Below are positions 37,585-48,611 of a stretch of DNA of 64,000 bases, in pieces. Position 1 is the stretch's first letter. Each line of letters opens with the position of its first letter. The stretch comes from Actinomycetes bacterium (GTDB lineage: Bacteria > Actinomycetota > Actinomycetes > JBBQFP01): the NCBI GenBank assembly GCA_038322045.1, contig JBBQFP010000002.1, positions 34,326 through 98,325 on the forward strand, given 5' to 3'. The translations under genes and the position numbers were made by a program. A model generated the notes under the pieces. It was not told the origin of the DNA. It ran no database searches and saw only the letters and a list, made by a program, of their open reading frames with translations.

Positions 37585-37606
37585 TGGCAGCGGCGGAAGG
37601 TCGCCC

Positions 37607-39061
37607 ATGGCCAGAACGACGCACACGACTGGCTCACAGGCTGTCGAGTACGACATCGAGGGCCGCGAGTACTTCGAGAAGCGAGAGCTGCGAGGCGGCG
37701 TCGCTGGCTGGCTGCTCCTCGCGGGGCTTGGGGTGGCCTACGTCATCTCGGGGGACTTCGCCGGGTGGAACTTCGGCTTGGAGCAGGGCGGTTGGGGTGG
37801 CCTGCTCGTGGCGACCATCCTCATGGCGACCATGTACCTCTTCATGGTTTTCGGCCTCGCCGAGCTATCCTCGACGATCTCCACCGCCGGTGGCGGCTAC
37901 GCATTCGCCCGGCGCGCCATGGGCCCCTGGGGCGGTTTCCTCACCGGCACCGCGATCCTCATCGAGTACGCGATCGCGCCGGCCGCCATCGCCAACTTCA
38001 TCGGGGCGTACGTCAACTCGCTGACCAACCGGGAGGTCCCCGGCTGGATCGTCTTCCTGGCGTTCTACGCGCTGTTCGTGGGCCTGCACCTCTACGGCGT
38101 CGGCGAGGCGCTCAAGCTGATGTTCGTCATCACGGCGATCGCTGTCGTGGCGCTGGTGGTCTTCGTGGTCGCGGCCGCCGTCAAGTTCGACCCGTCGAAC
38201 CTGCTGAACATCCCGAAGACCGACGCGGTGGGGGCCAGCTCGTTCCTGCCGTTCGGCGTGATCGGGATCTGGGCGGCGCTCCCTTACGCGATCTGGTTCT
38301 TCCTCGCCGTCGAGGGCGTGCCGATGGCCGCCGAGGAGACCAAGAATCCCGCCAAGGACATGCCCAAGGGAATCATCGTCGCGATGCTGGCTCTGCTGGT
38401 GTTCGCAGCGGCAGTCCTCACGACCGCGCCCGGCGCAGCCGGCTCGGAGTTCCTGCGCACATCCGGCAACCCGCTGGTCGAGGCGCTCGAAGCCCCGAAG
38501 GCGTACGGCGGGCAGAACTTCGTCAGCCAGTTCATCAACCTGGTCGGCCTGCTCGGGCTCATCGCGAGCTTCTTCTCGATCATCTACGGCTACTCCCGGC
38601 AGACCTTCGCGCTCTCCCGCGCCGGGTACCTGCCGAAGATCCTCTCGATCACCGGTCGACGCAAGACCCCGTTCCTCGCCCTCATTGTGCCCGGGATCAT
38701 CGGGTTCGTCATGGCCGTCTTCAACCAGGGCGACCTGCTCATCCTCGTGGCGGTCTTTGGTGCGACGATCTCCTACATCATGATGACGCTGTCGCACATC
38801 GTGCTCCGGAAGAGGGAGCCCGACCTGCCGCGGCCCTACCGCACGCCTGGCGGCGTCGTCACCACCGGCATCGCATGCGTCCTCGCCTGCATCGCGCTCG
38901 TTTCGGGTGCGCTGGTGGACCCGCGTGTCTTCTGGATCACAGCGGCCGTCTACGTGCTGGCGATCGCGTACTTCGCCCTCTACAGCCGTCACCACATCGT
39001 GGGGTCGGCCCCGGAGGAGGAGTTCGCGCTCATCGAGTCGGCGGAGGCCGAGCTCAACTGA
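37607..39061 (+). CDS. eat: ethanolamine permease (APC family)
   Basis: 484 aa, 12-TM APC transporter of the Eat type. GGAAGG RBS. First gene of the eut cluster. Confidence 0.8.
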   Translation: MARTTHTTGSQAVEYDIEGREYFEKRELRGGVAGWLLLAGLGVAYVISGDFAGWNFGLEQGGWGGLLVATILMATMYLFMVFGLAELSSTISTAGGGYAFARRAMGPWGGFLTGTAILIEYAIAPAAIANFIGAYVNSLTNREVPGWIVFLAFYALFVGLHLYGVGEALKLMFVITAIAVVALVVFVVAAAVKFDPSNLLNIPKTDAVGASSFLPFGVIGIWAALPYAIWFFLAVEGVPMAAEETKNPAKDMPKGIIVAMLALLVFAAAVLTTAPGAAGSEFLRTSGNPLVEALEAPKAYGGQNFVSQFINLVGLLGLIASFFSIIYGYSRQTFALSRAGYLPKILSITGRRKTPFLALIVPGIIGFVMAVFNQGDLLILVAVFGATISYIMMTLSHIVLRKREPDLPRPYRTPGGVVTTGIACVLACIALVSGALVDPRVFWITAAVYVLAIAYFALYSRHHIVGSAPEEEFALIESAEAELN

Positions 39062-39091
39062 TCCCCACAACGCCACGACGAAAGGGTCCGC

Positions 39092-39382
39092 ATGCTGATC
39101 GCGAGAGTCCGCGGCTCCGCCGTGTCGACCGTCAAGGAACGCAGCCTGGTGGGGCACAAGTTGCTGCTCGTGCAGGAGGCGACGGAGTGCGACGAGCTGA
39201 TCGGCCGGACGTTCGTCGCCGTCGACGGTGTCGGCGCGGGCACCGGCGAGCTCGTGCTCATCGCCACGGGGAGCGCCGCGCGCCACGGGGAGCGCACGCA
39301 GGACCAACCGGTCGATGCGCTCGTCATCGGCATCCTCGACTCGATGGACGTGGACGGTCAGACCACGTTCCGAAAGAGCTGA
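39092..39382 (+). CDS. eutN: BMC vertex protein (BMC-P, EutN/CcmL family)
   Basis: 96 aa, MLIARV...GSAV..K...G.KLLLV...VAVD.VGAG.GE.VL...GSAAR pattern of the EutN/PduN pentamer family. Confidence 0.85.
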   Translation: MLIARVRGSAVSTVKERSLVGHKLLLVQEATECDELIGRTFVAVDGVGAGTGELVLIATGSAARHGERTQDQPVDALVIGILDSMDVDGQTTFRKS

Positions 39383-39383
39383 C

Positions 39384-40820
39384 GTGCCGGTCTCAGGCCG
39401 CGACGTCCTCAGCGTCGGCATCGACGTGGGCACGACCACCACACAGGTCGTGTTCTCGCGGTTGTCGCTGCACGACGTCGCGCGCCCGGGACAGATACCC
39501 CGCATCCAGGTCGACGAGAAGTCGGTCGTCTACCGCAGCGAGGTCCACCCGACCCCGCTGACCAGTCCCGACGAGGTCGATGCGCCGGCCCTGGCGGCGA
39601 TCGTGCGCGAGGAGTACCGCCGCGCTGGCATCGAGCCGTCCGCCATCGAGACCGGCGCGGTCATCATCACGGGGGAGACCGCGCGCACCCGCAACGCCGA
39701 CGCTATCCTCGCGGAGCTGTCCAAGGAGGCCGGCGACTTCGTCGTCACGGTCGCCGGCCCGAACGCGGAGGCCCAGATCGCCGGGCGAGGCTCGGGCGTC
39801 GCTCGATGGTCAGCCGACCACTACGAGCAGGTCACCACCGTCGACGTCGGCGGCGGGACGTCGAACGCCGCGGTGTTCAAGATGGGCCGCCACCTGGGCT
39901 CGTCGGCGCTGGCAGTCGGCGGGCGCCAGGTCGAGATCGACAGCAGCGGCCGCGTGCTGCGCATCGCCCCACCGGGACGCTCCCTCGTCGAGGCGCTGGG
40001 ACTCGACCTGCGCGAGGGCGACGTCGCGACGCTGTCATCGTTGCGCCGCTTCTGCGACGTCATGGCCGATCTCATCGCCGACCTCGCTACCGGCCAAGAA
40101 GTCCGGATCGGCCGCGGCGTGCAGCTCACGCCACCGCTGCGCGACACCGCCGCGTCGACGTCGCTGTTCCTCACCGGCGGCGTGGGCGCTTGTTACTACG
40201 GGCGCGCGCCGTTCGGCACGGTCGCCGAGGTCGCGGCGTTTGGCGACGTCGGGCCGCTGCTCGCGGAGTCCTTGCGCCACAACGACCGGCTCGTGCGATT
40301 CACGGTGCGCGAGCCGCCGGAGACGCTGCGGGCCACCGTGCTCGGTGCCGCCGGGCAGACCGTGACGCTGTCGGGCTCCACGATCTGGGCCGACCGGCAG
40401 CTGCTGCCGTTGCGTAATCTGCCGGTGCTGCGTCCCTCGATGCCCGGCCGCGGCGGCGGTCCGCCGTTCGCCGAAGCCGTTGCCGAGGCCCGCAGCCGGT
40501 GGGATCTGGACGCCGATGCGCAGGTCGCGATCGTCGTCGACCTGCCCGCCGAGCTCGGCTACGCCGGGCTGACGGCTGTCGCCGGCGACATCGTGACCTA
40601 CCACGGCACGCGCCACGGCAGCTCACCGCTCGTCCTGGTCATGGCCCAGGACTACGCGCAGGTGCTCGGGCAGACCGTCCAGGCGCTGCGCCCGGGTCTG
40701 CCGCTGCTCGTCATCGACCAGGTCGGGCTCGGCGAGGGCGACTTCGTCGACGTGGGTGTGCCGATGCTGGACGGCCGCGCCGTCCCGCTCTCCATCAAGA
40801 CGCTGGTGTTCTATGACTGA
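39384..40820 (+). CDS. eutA: ethanolamine ammonia-lyase reactivase
   Basis: About 478 aa with EutA-like tandem actin-like ATPase motifs (GIDVGTTTTQ, DVGGGTSN). GTG start directly after the eutN stop. Confidence 0.85.
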   Translation: MPVSGRDVLSVGIDVGTTTTQVVFSRLSLHDVARPGQIPRIQVDEKSVVYRSEVHPTPLTSPDEVDAPALAAIVREEYRRAGIEPSAIETGAVIITGETARTRNADAILAELSKEAGDFVVTVAGPNAEAQIAGRGSGVARWSADHYEQVTTVDVGGGTSNAAVFKMGRHLGSSALAVGGRQVEIDSSGRVLRIAPPGRSLVEALGLDLREGDVATLSSLRRFCDVMADLIADLATGQEVRIGRGVQLTPPLRDTAASTSLFLTGGVGACYYGRAPFGTVAEVAAFGDVGPLLAESLRHNDRLVRFTVREPPETLRATVLGAAGQTVTLSGSTIWADRQLLPLRNLPVLRPSMPGRGGGPPFAEAVAEARSRWDLDADAQVAIVVDLPAELGYAGLTAVAGDIVTYHGTRHGSSPLVLVMAQDYAQVLGQTVQALRPGLPLLVIDQVGLGEGDFVDVGVPMLDGRAVPLSIKTLVFYD

Positions 40821-40853
40821 GTCCCACGCCCGAGGCTCGGGAGCTGAGGCCTG

Positions 40854-42218
40854 ATGCTCGCCGCCACGCTGTTCGGTCACCGGTACGAGTTCCGCGACGT
40901 CAAGGACCTCTTAGCGAAGGCCAACGAGGAGAAGTCCGGCGACCAGCTCGCCGGGATCGCCGCCGAGTCCGCCGCCGAACGCATGGCGGCGAAGTGGGTG
41001 CTGGCCGAGGTGACGCTCGAGACGCTGCGCCAGAATCCCGCCGTCCCGTACGAGCAGGACGAGGTCACGCGCGTCATCGACGACGCCGTCAACGAGACCG
41101 TCTACGGCGACATCAGGGGCATGGCCGTCGGCGAGCTGCGCGAGTGGTTGCTCGCCGACACGACGACCGAAGACATGATCAAGCGCACGTCGCTCGGCCT
41201 GACCGCCGAGATGGTGGCCGCGGTCACCAAGCTGATGTCGAACCTCGACCTCATGCTCGGCGCGAGCAAGATCCGCAACGTCAAGCACTGCAACAACACG
41301 ATCGGGCTTCGCGGCACGCTCGGCAGCCGGTTGCAGCCGAACCACCCCACGGACTCGGTTGAGGGCATCCGCGCCGAGATCTACGAGGGGCTCTCCTTCG
41401 GCTCGGGCGACAGCGTCATCGGCATCAACCCCTCCGACGACTCGATAGGCAGCGTCACGCGGCTCCTGGAGATGACGCACGAGGTCATCACGCGCTGGGA
41501 GATCCCGGCGCAGAACTGCGTGCTCGCCCACGTCTCCACGCAGATGGAAGCGCTCAAGAAGGGCGCGCCGGTCGGGTTGGTGTTCCAGTCCCTGGCCGGC
41601 TCGCAGCTGGGCTGCGAGTCGTTCGGGATCAGCGTCGGCATGCTGGACGAGGCGTACGCGCTGGCGAAGCGCTACTGCTGGACGCCGGGCCCGAACTACA
41701 TGTACTTCGAGACCGGCCAGGGCTCCGAGCTGTCCGCCGACGCGCACCACGGGGCCGACCAGCTCGTCATGGAGGCTCGCTGCTACGGGCTGGCGAGGCG
41801 CTACGACCCGTTCCAGGTCAACACGGTCGTCGGGTTCATCGGTCCGGAGTACCTCTACGACGCCACGCAGATCACCCGGGCCGGGCTCGAGGACCACTTC
41901 ATGGGCAAGCTCACCGGCATCTCGATGGGCTGCGACGTCTGCTACACCAACCACGCCCGCTCGACGCAGAACGAGAACGAGAACCTCGCGGTGCTCCTCG
42001 GCGCGGCCGGCGTGAACTTCATCATGGGCGTCCCGATGGGCGACGACGCGATGCTCAGCTACCAGAGCACCAGCTACCACGACGCGCCGAGCCTGCGCCG
42101 ACTGCTGAACCTGCGCCCCCTCCCGGAGTTCGAGCAGTGGATGACGGACCTGGGCCTGATGCGCGACGGCCGGCTGACCGAACGCGCTGGCGACGCCTCG
42201 TTCTTCCTCGGCCGCTGA
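40854..42218 (+). CDS. eutB: ethanolamine ammonia-lyase large subunit
   Basis: 454 aa with strong EutB similarity over its length. Confidence 0.9.
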   Translation: MLAATLFGHRYEFRDVKDLLAKANEEKSGDQLAGIAAESAAERMAAKWVLAEVTLETLRQNPAVPYEQDEVTRVIDDAVNETVYGDIRGMAVGELREWLLADTTTEDMIKRTSLGLTAEMVAAVTKLMSNLDLMLGASKIRNVKHCNNTIGLRGTLGSRLQPNHPTDSVEGIRAEIYEGLSFGSGDSVIGINPSDDSIGSVTRLLEMTHEVITRWEIPAQNCVLAHVSTQMEALKKGAPVGLVFQSLAGSQLGCESFGISVGMLDEAYALAKRYCWTPGPNYMYFETGQGSELSADAHHGADQLVMEARCYGLARRYDPFQVNTVVGFIGPEYLYDATQITRAGLEDHFMGKLTGISMGCDVCYTNHARSTQNENENLAVLLGAAGVNFIMGVPMGDDAMLSYQSTSYHDAPSLRRLLNLRPLPEFEQWMTDLGLMRDGRLTERAGDASFFLGR

Positions 42219-42228
42219 GGAGCGCGAC

Positions 42229-43251
42229 ATGCCTACCGTTGCCGCCGCCGAGATCCGCGCGATCGTCGCCGAGGTGCTCGCCGAGCTCGCGTCGTCCCGC
42301 GCCGCATCATCGGCCAGCGCGGCGCCGTCCTCGCCGGGCTCGCCGCTGCCCGCCGCTCCCCCGCCGGCCGGCTCGCCGCCCGCGACCACCGCTCCGGCAC
42401 CGCCCAAGGCGATGCCGACCGCGGCCGCGGGCGCAGCCGGCTCCCAGCCCTCGGGACCGACCCCGAGCATCGAGGTCGCCGACCCGACCGTCCCGGCCGC
42501 CCGGCACCGCATCGGCGTTAGCGACCCGGTCAACGCCAGCGGCCTGGAGAACCTCGTGGCCTCCACGACGGCGCGTATCGGCGTCGGCCGCGCCGGCTCT
42601 CGGCCGCCCACGGCGACGACGCTGCTCTTCGGGTCCGACCACGCAGTCACCCAGGACGCCATCTTCGGCACGGTCCCCGACGCGCTGCTCGAGCAGTTCG
42701 GCCTGTTCAGCGTGCAGACCCGGGTCAGCACCCGCGACGAGTACCTGCTGCGTCCGGACCTGGGCCGGCTGCTCTCCGACGATGGTCGGGCTCTGGTCGC
42801 GCAGCGCTGCGCGAAGAACCCCGACGTGCAGATCGTGGTGGGCGACGGCCTGTCCGCGGCGGCGATCACGAACAACCTCGACAAGATCTACCCGGTGCTC
42901 GAGCGCGGCTTCACCTCGGCCGGCGTCTCGCTCGGCACCCCGTTCTTCGTGCGGTTCTGCCGGGTGGGCGTGATCAACGACATCAACGATGTGATCGGCG
43001 CCGGCGTGGTCGTGCTGCTCATCGGCGAGCGGCCGGGACTCGGGGTCGCCGACGCGATGAGCGTCTACTCCGGGTGGCGTCCGACCGCCGGTAAGACCGA
43101 CGCGCACCGCGACGTCGTCTGCATGATCACCGAAAACGGAGGGACGAATCCCATGGAGGCTGGCGCGTTCGTCGTCGAGCATGTGCGGACCGTCCTGAAG
43201 GCACAGGGGAGCGGCGTCGACCTGCGGCTGCAGCAGAGCGCGAGCCGGTGA
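42229..43251 (+). CDS. eutC: ethanolamine ammonia-lyase small subunit with N-terminal extension
   Basis: C-terminal about 240 aa is EutC. The N-terminal about 20 aa amphipathic segment plus a about 70 aa Pro/Ala-rich linker is consistent with a BMC encapsulation peptide. Confidence 0.85.
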   Translation: MPTVAAAEIRAIVAEVLAELASSRAASSASAAPSSPGSPLPAAPPPAGSPPATTAPAPPKAMPTAAAGAAGSQPSGPTPSIEVADPTVPAARHRIGVSDPVNASGLENLVASTTARIGVGRAGSRPPTATTLLFGSDHAVTQDAIFGTVPDALLEQFGLFSVQTRVSTRDEYLLRPDLGRLLSDDGRALVAQRCAKNPDVQIVVGDGLSAAAITNNLDKIYPVLERGFTSAGVSLGTPFFVRFCRVGVINDINDVIGAGVVVLLIGERPGLGVADAMSVYSGWRPTAGKTDAHRDVVCMITENGGTNPMEAGAFVVEHVRTVLKAQGSGVDLRLQQSASR

Positions 43252-43907
43252 TGGGCGTCCTCGACCCGATCCGGGCCACCATCCTCGCCACCCGCGTCAT
43301 CTCGTCGGTCGAGCGCGGCCTCGCCCAGAAGTTCGAGCTCCGTGACGACCAGCACAGCCTCGCGCTGGTCACGTGCGACATCGACGACGTCCTGTACACC
43401 TCGCTCGACGAGGCGACCAAGAAGGCCGACGTCGAGGTCGTCTACGCCCGCAGCTTCTACGCCGGCTCGGCGCACGCCTCCGGACCGCTGTCCGGGGAGA
43501 TCATCGGCGTCTTGGCCGCTCCCGACCCAGAGGAGGCGCGGGCCGGGCTGGCCGCCTGCGTCGACTACGCGATGACGAAGGCGTGGTTCGAGGCGGCCGA
43601 CGAGGCAGGCGACCTCGCGTTCTTCAGCCACCCGATCTCGCGTACCGGCAGCTTCTTGTCCAAGGAGGCCGGCGTCCCGCTCGGCACCTCGCTCGGCTAC
43701 GTCATCGCCCCCCCGCTCGAGGCGACGTTCGCCCTCGACGCCGCGCTGAAGGCCGCGGAGGTCGAGCTCAAGGTGTGGTTCGCACCGCCCTCCGAGACCA
43801 ACTTCTCCGGCGGCTACCTCATCGGCGACCAGAGCGCCGTCGTCGCGGCGTGCAGCGCGTTCCGCGACGCCGTCGTCTCCGTCGCCGCCGGGCCGCGGGA
43901 GGTCTGA
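43248..43907 (+). CDS. eutL: BMC-T shell protein (permuted tandem BMC, EutL)
   Basis: 219 aa that aligns along EutL (LALVTCDIDDVLYTS...VVYARSFYAG...SRTGSFLS). Confidence 0.85.
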   Translation: MMGVLDPIRATILATRVISSVERGLAQKFELRDDQHSLALVTCDIDDVLYTSLDEATKKADVEVVYARSFYAGSAHASGPLSGEIIGVLAAPDPEEARAGLAACVDYAMTKAWFEAADEAGDLAFFSHPISRTGSFLSKEAGVPLGTSLGYVIAPPLEATFALDAALKAAEVELKVWFAPPSETNFSGGYLIGDQSAVVAACSAFRDAVVSVAAGPREV

Positions 43908-45433
43908 TGGGCGCCGTTCACGCCGGCAATGAGCTGGACGCCGACCTGCGCTCGGTCCAGGAGGCCCGGAGCCTCGCGCTGGCCTGCCGGGAGGCACAGC
44001 GGCAGTTCGCGACCGCCACCCAGGAGCAGGTCGATCGCGTCTGCGCGGCCATGGCCGACGCGGTGTACCGCGACGCCGAGCGGCTCGGTCGGCTCGCGCA
44101 CGAGGAGACCGGGTACGGCGTCGCAGCCCACAAGCGGCTGAAGATCGAGTTCGCCTCGCGCACGGTGTGGGAGTCGATCCGAGACCTGCGCACCGTCGGG
44201 GTGCTGCGGCGGGACGACGAGCGCCGGGTCGTCGAGATCGGGTGGCCGGTCGGCGTGATCGTCGGCCTGACGCCGTCGACGAATCCCAACTCCACCGCCG
44301 TGTACAAGGTCCTGATCTCGGTCAAGGCCCGCAACGGGATCATCATCGCCCCGCACCCGGCGGCCGTCCGGTGCTCCTACGAGGCCGTGCGGATCATGGC
44401 CGAGGCCGGCGAGCGCGCGGGTATGCCGCGTGGCCTGGTCGCCTGCATGCAGGAGGTCTCCCTGAAGGGCTCGCAGGAGCTTATGCGCCACGAGGCGACC
44501 TCGTTGATCCTCGCGACGGGCGGCACACCGATGGTCCGGGCGGCGCACAGCACGGGCAAGCCCGCTTTCGGCGTCGGCCCGGGCAACGTGCCGGTGTACG
44601 TCGACCGCAGTGCCGACGTCCCGGCCGCCGCCCGCGCGATCGTCAACAGCAAGGCGTTCGACTCCTCGGTGATCTGCGCGACCGAGCAGGCGGTCGTCGT
44701 CGACCGCCCGGTCGAGGCGGCGCTGCGCGCCGAGATGATCGCCAACGGCGCCTACTGGGTGCCGCCCGCGGACAAGCCGGCGCTGGAGCGCGCGCTTTTC
44801 ACGCCCACGCTCGGCATGGACCCGATGGCCGTCGGGCGCACCCCGCAGCAGCTCGCCGCGAAGGCTGGCATATCGGTGCCCCCCGAGGCACGGATCCTGG
44901 TGGTCGACCTCGACCGGGTCGGGCGCTCGGAGCCGCTGTCCGGCGAGAAGCTCACCACGGTGCTCGGCTTCTACGTCGCGGACGGCTGGCGCGCCGGGTG
45001 CGACCGCGCCGTCGAGCTGCTCCACCACGGCGGCGACGGACACTCGATGGTCATCCACGCCACCGACGAGGACGTCATCCTGACCTTTGGCATCGAGAAG
45101 CCGGCGTTCCGAATCCTCGTCAACACGTGGGGCACGCTCGGCGCGATCGGGGCCACGACAGGCGTGATGCCGGCACTCACGCTGGGTCCCGGCGGCATCG
45201 GCGGCGCGGTCGTCGGCGACAACATCACGACCACCCATCTGCTCAACGTCAAGCGGCTCGCGTACCCGCTGCGGGAGCCGCCGCCGATCGCGTACGAGCT
45301 GGCGCCCGACGTCCGGCCCGGCGCGCCCACAACCGCTCGCGACGGCCGCACGGCCGCTGGCGCTATGGTCCTCGACGAGCAGGTCGAGCGGATCGTGGCC
45401 CGCGTCCTCGCGCAGCTCGGCGGCCGGCCGTGA
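43907..45433 (+). CDS. eutE: CoA-acylating acetaldehyde dehydrogenase
   Basis: ALDH-like EutE/PduP family. 508 aa with a about 45 aa C-terminal extension. ATG overlaps the eutL stop by 1 nt. Confidence 0.85.
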
Positions 45434-45579
45434 CCGCGGACACTGCGTCGGCGCCGAAGACCACCCCTGATCGCGCGCCGGGGCCGGACGCCCGCCGTCC
45501 GGACCGCAGCACCCATCCCCCGCCGCACCGGAGCGACCTTGACGACCCGGCACCACCTCCCCCCGGAAGGACCAGCACA

Positions 45580-45891
45580 GTGGCGACTCCCCAGCTCATC
45601 GCGCTCGGCATGATCGAGACCCGCGGCCTCGTCGGCGCCATCGAAGCCGCCGACGCCATGGTCAAGGCGGCGAACGTGACCCTCATCGGCAAGGAGCAGA
45701 TCGGCGGTGGCTACGTCACCGTGATGGTCCGCGGCGACGTCGGTGCCGTGAAGGCCGCCACCGACGCCGGTGCTGCCGCGGCGCAGCGCGTCGGCGACCT
45801 CGTCAGCGTGCACGTCATCCCCCGGCCGCACGGCGACGTCGAGTTCATCCTGCCGACGACCAGGTCGGGCGGCGTTCCCGACACCATCTGA
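45580..45891 (+). CDS. eutM: BMC-H shell protein (EutM/PduA family)
   Basis: [26 protein letters not shown] canonical BMC (Pfam00936) domain. GTG start with a GGAAGGA RBS. Confidence 0.85.
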
Positions 45892-45931
45892 CCCGACCTG
45901 ACCTGCTGGTCGCTGCTGCCGAAGGGTTCCC

Positions 45932-46537
45932 GTGAGGGACGACGATCCCGTCGCGTTCCGCCGTGTCGTCACGGCCGAGGACGTGCTCCGCCTCGTCCGC
46001 GAGGGCGTGGCGGAGCTCGCCGTCGGCCCGGACGACCGGTTCACCTCGCTCGCGCGCGACCTGGTGCGCGAGAAGGGGGTGCGCGTCGTCGTCCGCGACG
46101 CAGCCGGACGCGGCGGTGGTCCCGCACCCGGGCCTGACGTGCCCGCGCTCCCGCCGGTGGCGTCCCGGTCCGGCCCGGCTCGCCGGCTCACCCACGTGGC
46201 CGACGTGCTGCGTCTGACGCTGGACCCCTTCCCGGTCGAGCTCGGCCGGCCGGCGATGGACGTGCGGCTGCGCGACGTCGTGACCGCGCGGGACGGGCTG
46301 CCGATGGCCGCCGGCGTCATGAGCCTGCGGGAGGGCAGCTTTCCCTGGCATCTCGACTACGACGAGGTGGAGTATGTCCTCGAGGGCGAGCTGCACATCA
46401 CGACTCCCGACCAGAAGGTCGTCGGGCGTCCCGGCGATGTCATCGCCGTCCCGAAGGGCTCCTCCATCACCTTCGGGACGCCGTCCTGGGCCAAGTTCCT
46501 CTACGTCACCTACCCCGCGGACTGGAGCGGAGCGTGA
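45932..46537 (+). CDS. eutQ: ethanolamine utilisation cupin protein EutQ
   Basis: C-terminal cupin ([32 protein letters not shown]) and an N-terminal EutQ-type domain (VTAEDV...[24 protein letters not shown]). Confidence 0.75.
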
Positions 46538-47367
46538 AGGACGTCGAGTCCACGATGGCGGCAGCCGCAGCGGTGATGGCCACACCGGACCGGCCCGCCG
46601 AGCGCCCCGCCGCGCTGAAGGTCGGGGTCGACCTCGGCACGGCATACACGGTCGTGGTCGCGCTCGACGCCGACGACCGACCGCTCGCCGGCGCCTACGA
46701 GTTCGCCGACGTGGTGCGCGACGGCGTCGTCACGGACTTCCTCGGCGCGGTCGACCTGGTGCGCCGGCTCAAGCGGCAGGTCGAGGACCGACTCGGGTGC
46801 TCGATCGCCGCGGCGCACGGCGCGTTCCCGCCGGGAGTGCCCGCGGCCGAGGTCCGGGCTGTCCGGCACGTCATCGAGGCGTGCGACATGGACTGCTCGG
46901 GGCTGGTCGACGAGCCGTCCGCGGCCAACGCCGTCCTGCAGCTCACCGACGGGGTCGTCGTCGACGTCGGAGGCGGTACCACCGGGATCGCCGTCGTGCG
47001 GGACGGCATCGTCGTGCACACCGCCGACGAGGCCACCGGCGGTACCCACATGACCCTCGTCATTGCCGGGGCGCTCGGCGTGCCGTTCGAGACGGCCGAG
47101 CGGCACAAGCTCGACCCGGCACAGCAGGTGCGCCTGCTCCCGCTGATCCGTCCGGTGATGGAGAAGGTTGCCGAGATCGCGCGGCGCAACACCGCGGGGT
47201 TCGACGTCCCACACATCACCCTCGTCGGAGGCCCCGCGGCCTTCCCCGGCTTTGCCGAGGCGGTGACGGATGCTCTCGGCGTGCCGACCACCGTCCCGCC
47301 GCATCCGCTGTTCGTGACCCCGCTCGGGATCGCGCGGAGCGCGCCCGTGTACGCCCCCCTGTCCTGA
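46534..47367 (+). CDS. eutJ: EutJ (Hsp70/actin-like chaperone)
   Basis: GVDLGTAYT, DVGGGTTGIAV and LVGGPAAFPG actin-fold ATPase motifs. GTG start overlaps the eutQ stop. Confidence 0.8.
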   Translation: MKDVESTMAAAAAVMATPDRPAERPAALKVGVDLGTAYTVVVALDADDRPLAGAYEFADVVRDGVVTDFLGAVDLVRRLKRQVEDRLGCSIAAAHGAFPPGVPAAEVRAVRHVIEACDMDCSGLVDEPSAANAVLQLTDGVVVDVGGGTTGIAVVRDGIVVHTADEATGGTHMTLVIAGALGVPFETAERHKLDPAQQVRLLPLIRPVMEKVAEIARRNTAGFDVPHITLVGGPAAFPGFAEAVTDALGVPTTVPPHPLFVTPLGIARSAPVYAPLS

Positions 47368-47392
47368 CACCGCTCGATCGAGGAGACCTCCC

Positions 47393-48016
47393 GTGGCCGA
47401 CGACCTGGAGCTGCGCTGCTACAGCTACATCGACCGGATGCAGCCGCAGTACGCGTCCTTCGTGGGCACGGTGACCTCCGGGGACCTGCCGGTGGAGGGC
47501 ATGGCCGCCCTGTACGTGGAGATGGCGCCGGGCAACCACGTGTTCCGGGTCGTCGACGTCGCCGTGAAGGCGACCGACGCGCGGCCGGGCGCGCAGATCG
47601 TCGAGCGGCAGTACGGCATGTTCGAGCTGCACTCGCAGTCGCAGGCCGAGGTGCTGCAGGCGGGCGACGCGGTGCTCGCCGAGCTCGGGCTCCGCGCGAC
47701 CGACCGGGTACGACCCAAGATCGCGTCGCTGCAGGTCATCACGAATGTGAGCCCGTACCAGTCGCAGCTGCTCAACCGGTTCACCCGCGGCATGATGCTC
47801 GTCGCCGGCCAGACCATGCTGGTGGTGGAGTGCACGCCCGCCGCGTACATCAACTTCGCCGCGAACGAGGCCGAGAAGGCCGCGACGGTCAACCTCATGC
47901 ACGTCGCGTCCATCGGCATCTTCGGCCGGCTGTGGATGGCCGGCTCCGAGGCCGACATCGTGACCGCGCGTGACGCCGTGGTCTCAGCGCTGGAGGGCAT
48001 CGATGGCCGGGACTGA
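47393..48016 (+). CDS. tandem BMC-domain shell protein (non-permuted BMC-T, PduT/CcmO-like)
   Basis: Two consecutive segments each align to the canonical BMC-H fold (ALYVEMAPGNHVFRVVDVAVKATDA... and LVVECTPAAYINFAANEAEKAATV...). A Cys is present in the second domain. Confidence 0.65.
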   Translation: MADDLELRCYSYIDRMQPQYASFVGTVTSGDLPVEGMAALYVEMAPGNHVFRVVDVAVKATDARPGAQIVERQYGMFELHSQSQAEVLQAGDAVLAELGLRATDRVRPKIASLQVITNVSPYQSQLLNRFTRGMMLVAGQTMLVVECTPAAYINFAANEAEKAATVNLMHVASIGIFGRLWMAGSEADIVTARDAVVSALEGIDGRD

Positions 48017-48350
48017 CGCGCAGCGGCGCCGCTTCGTCACCCGCGCCCACGTCGAGGACGCGGCCGCCACGGGGCAAGCCCTGCGCCTCGGCCCGCGCGA
48101 CGTGCTCACCGACGAGGCGGGGACCCGCGCCCGCGACCTCGGCGTGGCGATCGAACGGGACGGCGCGCCGGCCGGGGCTCCCGGTCGCCGCCCTACGCAG
48201 GCCCCTGCCGCGTCAGGCGCCGCGACATCGCAGGGCGAGGACGCGCTGCGTGTCGCCGTCCGGGCCGCCGTCGTCGCCGAGCTCGGCGCGGGCACGCCGG
48301 GCATCGATGCCGCGATCGACCGGGTCTTCGCCCGCCGCGCCAGCCGCTAG
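48003..48350 (+). CDS. small protein with an EutQ N-terminal-like domain only
   Basis: RRRFVTRAHVEDAAATGQALRLGPRDVLTDEAGTRARDLGVAIE shares the motif of the EutQ N-domain and is followed by an Ala-rich tail. Overlaps the BMC-T 3-prime end by 14 nt. Confidence 0.4.
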   Translation: MAGTDAQRRRFVTRAHVEDAAATGQALRLGPRDVLTDEAGTRARDLGVAIERDGAPAGAPGRRPTQAPAASGAATSQGEDALRVAVRAAVVAELGAGTPGIDAAIDRVFARRASR

Positions 48351-48611
48351 GACTCGACCAGCCACCGCGCCTGGTACGGCCGCCAGTGCTCGGCCACGCC
48401 GAACAGCTCGAGCAGCGGTCCGAGCGGGTGCTCCCGCAGCACGTGCAAGACCCCGAAGCGGCGTGACCCTCCCCCTGCCGCGCCGGCCGCCGCCGCGTCG
48501 TCGTCGTCGATCGCCCTCCCGATGTCGTCGTGGCAGCGCATGTAAGTGATCCACGCTGTCGTCCCCCGTTTTGGGCCAGGGGTGGGAGACGGACACGGCG
48601 TGCGAGCGCGG

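Follow-up and report, generated by a model that had tools for sequence, protein, structure and literature searches.

Acylating acetaldehyde dehydrogenases (AldDh) of bacterial microcompartments (BMCs) are split into type I (IPR013357), which is dominated by EUT2 loci and has a C-terminal encapsulation peptide (EP), and type II, in which the EP is N-terminal (Sutter 2021, PMC8217296); by locus type, EUT1 has the AldDh EP at the N-terminus and the remaining EUT types have it at the C-terminus (Aussignargues 2015, PMC4594438). A C-terminal EP has also been predicted for the AldDh of SPU6 (sugar-phosphate utilisation) loci, the sister clade of EUT3 (PMC11585597). EUT3 loci, which are found in Micrococcales and Propionibacteriales as well as in Chloroflexi and Spirochaetes, encode a shell with one each of BMC-H, BMC-P, BMC-Tsp and BMC-Tdp, and their AldDh is closest to that of SPU6 (Sutter 2021, PMC8217296). 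Here we describe the C-terminal tail of an AldDh encoded at 43907-45433 in a 64,000-nucleotide stretch of DNA from an Actinomycetes bacterium (GenBank assembly GCA_038322045.1, contig JBBQFP010000002.1, positions 34,326 to 98,325; hereafter the window). All coordinates are those of the window, and all features described lie on its plus strand.

Residues ~471-508 of this AldDh very probably constitute a C-terminal EP module, which would consist of a disordered, fast-evolving linker followed by an amphipathic helix of ~16 residues. The features by which EPs are recognised were taken from Kinney 2012 and Aussignargues 2015. An amphipathic helix was found (AlphaFold2 residues 484-503; 11-mer hydrophobic moment 0.79; pattern kept in 78 tails), with caveats concerning a moderate predicted local distance difference test score (pLDDT) and the 18-mer moment. 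The helix lies at the extreme terminus, and the linker between it and the catalytic domain is poorly conserved, with a mean column entropy of 2.75 versus 0.54 for the core in an alignment of 45 homologues sharing 72-81% identity with AldDh. The host protein is a core/signature-type enzyme encoded together with four shell genes and EutABC, and shell genes were present in 80 of 80 related loci.

The AldDh extends beyond its catalytic core only at the C-terminus

The AldDh ATG at 43907 overlaps the eutL TGA by one base and has GGGAGG upstream. Close homologues start at the same residue, and a longer in-frame upstream open reading frame (ORF) was rejected as the start because it falls inside the well-supported eutL. 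The ORF and translation quoted in a preliminary description of this DNA were exact, and the stretch to which it had drawn attention (45230-45433) corresponds to residues 442-508, the last 67 codons, plus the stop codon of this 508-residue protein. The Pfam family of AldDh is Aldedh, and its best NCBIfam match was TIGR02518 (551.5 bits), which aligned to query residues 11-501 and so includes the tail; since this score falls short of the curated equivalog cut-off (620.1 bits), AldDh was placed in a divergent actinobacterial branch of the TIGR02518 clade, which we take to be equivalent to IPR013357. The score against the EutE/PduP-type family PRK15398 was 202.9 bits (cut-off 403), and AldDh is thus closer to TIGR02518 than to that family. 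The preliminary description had called the protein EutE; this label was not upheld, and orthology with enterobacterial EutE was rejected on the PRK15398 score together with an alignment to E. coli EutE that reached 32% identity over residues 47-334 only. On the evidence of these family profiles, AldDh belongs to the type I acylating acetaldehyde dehydrogenases of BMCs.

Cys257, in the motif SVICATEQ, was invariant in the 45 homologues and aligned with ICASEQ of the solved structures 3k9d and 5j78; PDB 3k9d matched AldDh at 5e-139, and Foldseek with the AlphaFold2 model gave template modelling scores, relative to the target, of 0.88-0.89 to 3k9d and 5j78 (0.89 for 3k9d), aligning ~438-450 columns of the 508-residue model. 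In sequence alignments the solved homologues began at query residue 9-11 and ended at 452-464 (Listeria 3k9d at 456, Geobacillus 5j78 at 460, AdhE aldehyde dehydrogenase (ALDH) domains at 452, SucD 8cei at 464), from which it follows that AldDh has no N-terminal extension and continues for ~50 residues past the ALDH fold. This is the arrangement expected for the EP position in a type I AldDh, at the C-terminus with nothing at the N-terminus. It also bears out the earlier proposals that the extension is not part of the conserved fold and that the N-terminus is unextended, the latter resting on alignment of 3k9d from residue 11, the shared start of close homologues and the position of the upstream ORF inside eutL. 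We delimit the catalytic ALDH core, by its extent aligned to solved structures, as residues 11-455 (43937-45271). Within the core, the invariant Gly-rich stretch at residues 421-447 (~45167-45247) had an AlphaFold2 pLDDT of only 31-49 despite aligning well to solved structures, which is probably an effect of shallow alignment.

Anatomy and conservation of the tail

Mean column entropy divided the region past the core into distinct segments, rising from 0.54 in residues 11-455 to 1.15 in residues 456-470 and 2.75 in residues 471-489, and falling again to 1.03 in residues 490-505. The proximal segment (residues 456-470; 45272-45316) is semi-conserved, with an AlphaFold2 pLDDT of 73-77 and the pattern R-x-PP-x-x-A-[YF]-x-x-A-P-D-V, in which P458, P459 and A462 are invariant; the PP..A motif is retained in Spirochaetes and Chloroflexi homologues, and the segment probably packs on the core in an ordered state. 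The hypervariable linker (residues 471-489, ~19 residues; 45317-45373) contains many indels and was modelled as coil with a pLDDT of ~50. A Pro-rich linker covering the whole stretch had been suggested previously; a free linker of that extent was rejected in view of the conservation of residues 456-470 in several phyla, and the suggestion holds for the variable residues 471-489 but not for the first ~15 residues, which are conserved and probably ordered. The candidate EP helix (residues 490-505; 45374-45421) is helical in the AlphaFold2 model, keeps a conserved hydrophobic register in which at least 90% of the 45 homologues retain R495, I496, V497, V500 and L504, and ends 3 residues short of the stop codon. 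The model as a whole placed coil at residues 464-483 and helix at 484-503, the tail 11-mer ranked 5 of 498 AldDh windows by hydrophobic moment (0.79), and the whole tail measured 38-81 residues in the 45 homologues and 38-83 residues when the related loci were included.

The same design was found throughout the relatives of AldDh. The 120 closest database homologues all have a variable linker and, after it, the motif D-[DE]-x-V-[DE]-R-I-V-x-R-V-L-x-E-L-G-G. A genome scan with one genome per species yielded 80 related loci in Actinobacteria, Spirochaetes and Chloroflexi, at 57-80% identity, the nearest being from Dermatophilaceae, Nocardioidaceae and Actinotalea metagenome-assembled genomes (73-77%). 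Every complete AldDh ORF in these loci ends in such a helix (79/79), and BMC-P, BMC-H and, where the contig reaches, BMC-Tdp adjoin AldDh in all 80; the actinobacterial and spirochaete loci show the full synteny of the window, and the Chloroflexi loci contain BMC-P, AldDh, BMC-H, sometimes EutJ, and BMC-Tdp. Among 78 distinct tails from the three phyla, positions 493, 496, 497, 500, 501 and 504 are I, L, V, M or F in 86-100%; the intervening positions hold polar residues in 74-96% and hydrophobic ones hardly ever. Because this i, i+3, i+4, i+7, i+8, i+11 pattern is kept in three phyla while the linker is scrambled, the tail appears to be under constraint as a functional amphipathic helix, which presumably also forms in vivo. 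More distant representatives of clusters at 50% identity share this design but not the sequence, with tails ending in, for instance, ...IKAIVSEVLRQFRS and ...IETLVKQVLKEYQNQ; many representatives of 445-470 residues, as well as AdhE fusions, lack a tail.

The Chloroflexi AldDh loci (L038-L081) are SPU6-like, being compact clusters with no EutABC beside AldDh. Their tails are nearly fixed in length at 42-46 residues, compared with 46-83 residues in Actinobacteria.

Similarity to validated encapsulation peptides

To compare the tail with known EPs, its 16-mer was slid ungapped along whole proteins with BLOSUM62 scoring and 500 shuffles. The best match in E. coli EutC was at residue 3 (QKQIEEIVRSVMASMG; score 38, reached by 0/500 shuffles), that in E. 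coli EutE also at residue 3 (QQDIEQVVKAVLLKMQ; 38/500 shuffles), and that in the EutC of the window at residue 6 (AAEIRAIVAEVLAELA; score 31, 0/500 shuffles); these sites are the N-terminal EP regions of the three proteins. Residues 6-21 of the window EutC (AAEIRAIVAEVLAELA; 42244-42291) form an N-terminal EP-like helix with the same hydrophobic motif as the AldDh tail, followed by an Ala/Pro/Ser-rich low-complexity linker of ~80 residues, and the Pfam EutC domain begins at residue 106. The AldDh tail and the EutC head share a common register (VERIVARVL versus IRAIVAEVL). A strict motif of five hydrophobic positions occurred once in AldDh (residue 493) and once in EutC (residue 9); elsewhere in the locus it was found at six sites of the membrane permease and at a single internal site in each of BMC-P, EutA and EutJ.

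The BMC-H of the window keeps AMVKAA and a second 10-residue stretch exactly as in E. coli EutM and PduA, and these two stretches are reported to line the hydrophobic groove between tessellating hexamers that is the EP-binding site (PMC11157265). The window BMC-H is the presumed docking partner of the tail.

In the mechanism that we propose, V493, I496, V497, V500, L501 and L504 would lie on one face of the helix. This hydrophobic face would bundle with similar helices, among them the almost identical one at the EutC N-terminus, and cargo would thereby condense into a core; in addition or instead, the face would dock on the lumenal side in the groove between tessellating EutM-like BMC-H hexamers. 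Either way, AldDh would be enclosed together with ethanolamine ammonia-lyase, and acetaldehyde would be converted to acetyl-CoA inside the shell. Metabolosome EPs are known to form trimeric helical bundles and to drive cargo condensation (PMC12339742).

Weighing of alternative explanations

Several observations weigh against the assignment of an EP. The AlphaFold2 confidence for the tail helix is low to moderate (pLDDT ~50-67). The amphipathic helix claimed in the preliminary description was borne out by the model and by the pattern in 78 tails, but its 18-mer hydrophobic moment of 0.44 is unremarkable, being equalled by 10% of shuffles (p ~0.10) and peaking at 90 degrees rather than 100; single-sequence amphipathicity of the tail is only moderate, and since the 18-mer moment was not significant against shuffles, we relied on comparative conservation. 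The absence of the tail from non-BMC homologues was assessed with solved structures and curated family profiles only. Lastly, the CutF of the K. pneumoniae choline-utilisation BMC (GRM2), whose tail is NEQNVERVIRQVLERLG, was not encapsulated alone in recombinant shells; its encapsulation needed the signature enzyme CutC, and CutF enlarged the cores (PMC6971018). Because the near-identical CutF tail was insufficient in recombinant shells, the AldDh tail may, by analogy, act mainly by cross-linking cargo. In the stricter form of this idea the tail would be a cargo-to-cargo cross-linker and not a shell-docking signal, AldDh would piggy-back on ethanolamine ammonia-lyase via the EutC helix or on other cargo, and a foreign protein would not be directed to empty shells by the tail alone. 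The dependence of CutF on CutC, the trimeric bundling of metabolosome EPs and the common register of AldDh tail and EutC head all speak for it. However, direct binding to BMC-H tiles in vitro was shown for N-terminal EPs that share this motif, as with PduL and PduA (PMC11157265), the groove residues are conserved in the window BMC-H, and the recombinant GRM2 system may not mirror native assembly, according to its authors (PMC6971018). Moreover, cross-linking and shell docking are not mutually exclusive, and we regard the strict form as possible but somewhat doubtful.

Two further explanations would deny the tail any role in encapsulation. The helix could be a compartment-independent structural or oligomerisation element of AldDh, such as a tetramer stabiliser or an active-site lid, and the conserved, probably ordered segment at residues 456-470 would suit such a role. 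Yet the solved homologues and the non-BMC families compared (AdhE ALDH domain, SucD 8cei, SauS profile) stop at query residues 452-475, and these enzymes are active with no such helix. The linker ranges in length from a few residues to over 40, a poor fit to a fixed contact, and all 80 tail-bearing relatives lie in BMC loci, which makes this explanation very improbable. It could also be argued that the extension is not translated as read, being a run-on ORF or the product of a sequencing frameshift, since high-GC DNA yields many long spurious ORFs and the window has a GC content of 71%. Against this stand the helix-specific conservation at the protein level in 120 homologues and 79 loci of three phyla and the alignment of the TIGR02518 profile through query residue 501, and we give the idea practically no credence. 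The EP assignment thus remains our preferred reading, and the candidate C-terminal EP of the preliminary description was substantiated by the helix, the variable linker, the BMC operon and the register common to EutC and EutE.

Organisation of the operon

AldDh belongs to a single-strand operon (~37.6-48.4 kb) of BMC and eut genes that runs from a permease to a small ORF. The first gene encodes an amino-acid/ethanolamine permease (37607-39061), followed by the BMC-P vertex protein of the EutN/CcmL family (39092-39382; Pfam PF03319, EutN_CcmL, 98.9 bits) and, between BMC-P and EutB, by EutA. The subunits of ethanolamine ammonia-lyase, the signature enzyme, are encoded by EutB (40854-42218; Pfam EutB, 696 bits) and EutC (42229-43251; Pfam EutC, 245 bits). 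Next come EutL (43248-43907; TIGR04502, 333 bits), a BMC-T of the permuted single-layer trimer kind (BMC-Tsp), the AldDh gene, and the EutM-like BMC-H shell protein (45580-45891; Pfam BMC 106 bits, NCBIfam EutM 143 bits). EutQ, with its N-terminus at 45932-46090, follows BMC-H, EutJ lies between EutQ and BMC-Tdp, and the CcmP-like double-stacking BMC-T (BMC-Tdp; 47393-48016; NF053796 CcmP, 258 bits) precedes the last gene, a small unannotated ORF of 115 residues (48003-48350).

With EutABC and one each of BMC-H, BMC-P, BMC-Tsp (EutL) and BMC-Tdp, the last being the hallmark of EUT3 loci and conserved in all related loci, the window locus matches the published EUT3 type, catalogued in 2021; no difference from the catalogued type (Sutter 2021, Supplementary Data 2) was found, and the window synteny is common to 30-odd actinobacterial and spirochaete loci. 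No genes for a phosphotransacylase (EutD/PduL) or an alcohol dehydrogenase (EutG) were seen inside the operon (37600-48400), so that recycling of CoA and NAD+ for an encapsulated AldDh is unaccounted for within the locus.

The small ORF downstream of BMC-Tdp

The small ORF at 48003-48350 had no match in Pfam (E <= 1) or NCBIfam. It is located downstream of the BMC-Tdp gene in 29 of the 30 retrieved actinobacterial EUT3-type loci that reach that far, at 47-67% identity. Its N-terminal module of ~45 residues has the pattern RRRF[IV]TRxxVEDAAxxGxxIxLxxRDVLTDEAAQRAxDLGV; beyond it come a linker of high variability, the conserved helix LRxAVRAAVVAELG and, after that, GLDAAIDRVLxRR. The best match to the AldDh helix within the ORF is an EP-like helix near the C-terminus (DALRVAVRAAVVAELG; 48240-48287), with a score that was reached by 24 of 500 shuffles. 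The small ORF may encode either an adaptor or a third protein with an EP. In a more elaborate scheme, the EUT3 core would be nucleated by three near-identical helices, at the EutC N-terminus (IRAIVAEVLAEL), at the AldDh C-terminus and in the small ORF (LRxAVRAAVVAELG), and the small ORF would be a CcmN-like adaptor linking the condensate to the shell; we consider this scheme unlikely, although such a three-helix network, if true, would explain why CutF-like tails are insufficient alone.

A module with the pattern FV.E.DV..A...G..I.....ivTP.Ar.la....V is present at the EutQ N-terminus (45932-46090), and by eye it is also seen in the small ORF; a pairwise BLAST comparison of the small ORF with EutQ gave no significant match (E = 0.25), and the N-terminal resemblance is visual only. 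An EutQ-like module also occurs at the far C-terminus of several distant AldDh homologues (P0124, P0129, P0145, P0221 and P0238), where it replaces or follows the EP.

Comparison with known systems

The AldDh of the window resembles described type I BMC AldDh in its core, variable linker, amphipathic C-terminal helix of 15-17 residues, lack of an N-terminal extension and location in a BMC locus, and differs in an extra conserved PP-containing proximal segment. As with EUT3 loci generally, relatives of the window locus occur in Actinobacteria, Spirochaetes and Chloroflexi; the AldDh it encodes most resembles those of SPU6-like loci. The Chloroflexi SPU6 AldDh share 57-65% identity, a tail of the form I-E-x-V-V-R-x-V-V-x-E-I-L, and the neighbours seen in the window, with BMC-P upstream and BMC-H and BMC-Tdp downstream; however, their linker is shorter (tail ~42 residues), and the fetched loci are without EutABC next to AldDh. 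In GRM2 CutF of K. pneumoniae, VERVIRQVLERLG almost equals the AldDh tail 13-mer at the same terminus (Kalnins 2020, PMC6971018), but the BMC is one of choline utilisation and the peptide was insufficient for encapsulation in recombinant shells.

The EPs of EutC (residues 1-19), EutE and PduP (residues 1-18) of E. coli and Salmonella, from EUT1 and PDU systems, show the same hydrophobic register and similar residues (QKQIEEIVRSVMASMG, QQDIEQVVKAVLLKMQ) as the AldDh tail, and the same BMC-H binding site is presumed for them. These EPs are located at the opposite terminus, and the host AldDh (EutE or PduP) belongs to the type II clade; E. coli EutE has an N-terminal EP and no C-terminal tail, whereas the window AldDh is the reverse. 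CcmN of the beta-carboxysome also carries a C-terminal amphipathic helix after a variable linker, but it is an adaptor and not an enzyme, and its EP, which is without the metabolosome motif, does not bring about condensation of cargo (PMC12339742). The earlier remark that EPs are usually N-terminal on EutE/PduP is correct for type II (EUT1 and PDU) but does not extend to this AldDh, to which the C-terminal rule of type I applies; the C-terminal position had seemed surprising because the protein was compared with EutE/PduP of the other clade. Since a C-terminal EP is the published rule for the type I clade, its occurrence here is expected rather than surprising.

The C-terminal feature of AldDh is real, was correctly interpreted and is not new; it opens no new question, given that this placement was already in print in 2015 and that the locus type has been in the catalogue since 2021. 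The sole mildly novel thread is the small ORF, with its layout of module, variable linker and conserved helix. The analysis confirms that the rules for recognising EPs work on raw sequence, and the AldDh tail is a candidate C-terminal tag for engineering the loading of enzymes into EUT3 shells. With EutC and AldDh, the operon also offers a clear case from Actinobacteria of two cargo enzymes that bear nearly identical helices at opposite termini.

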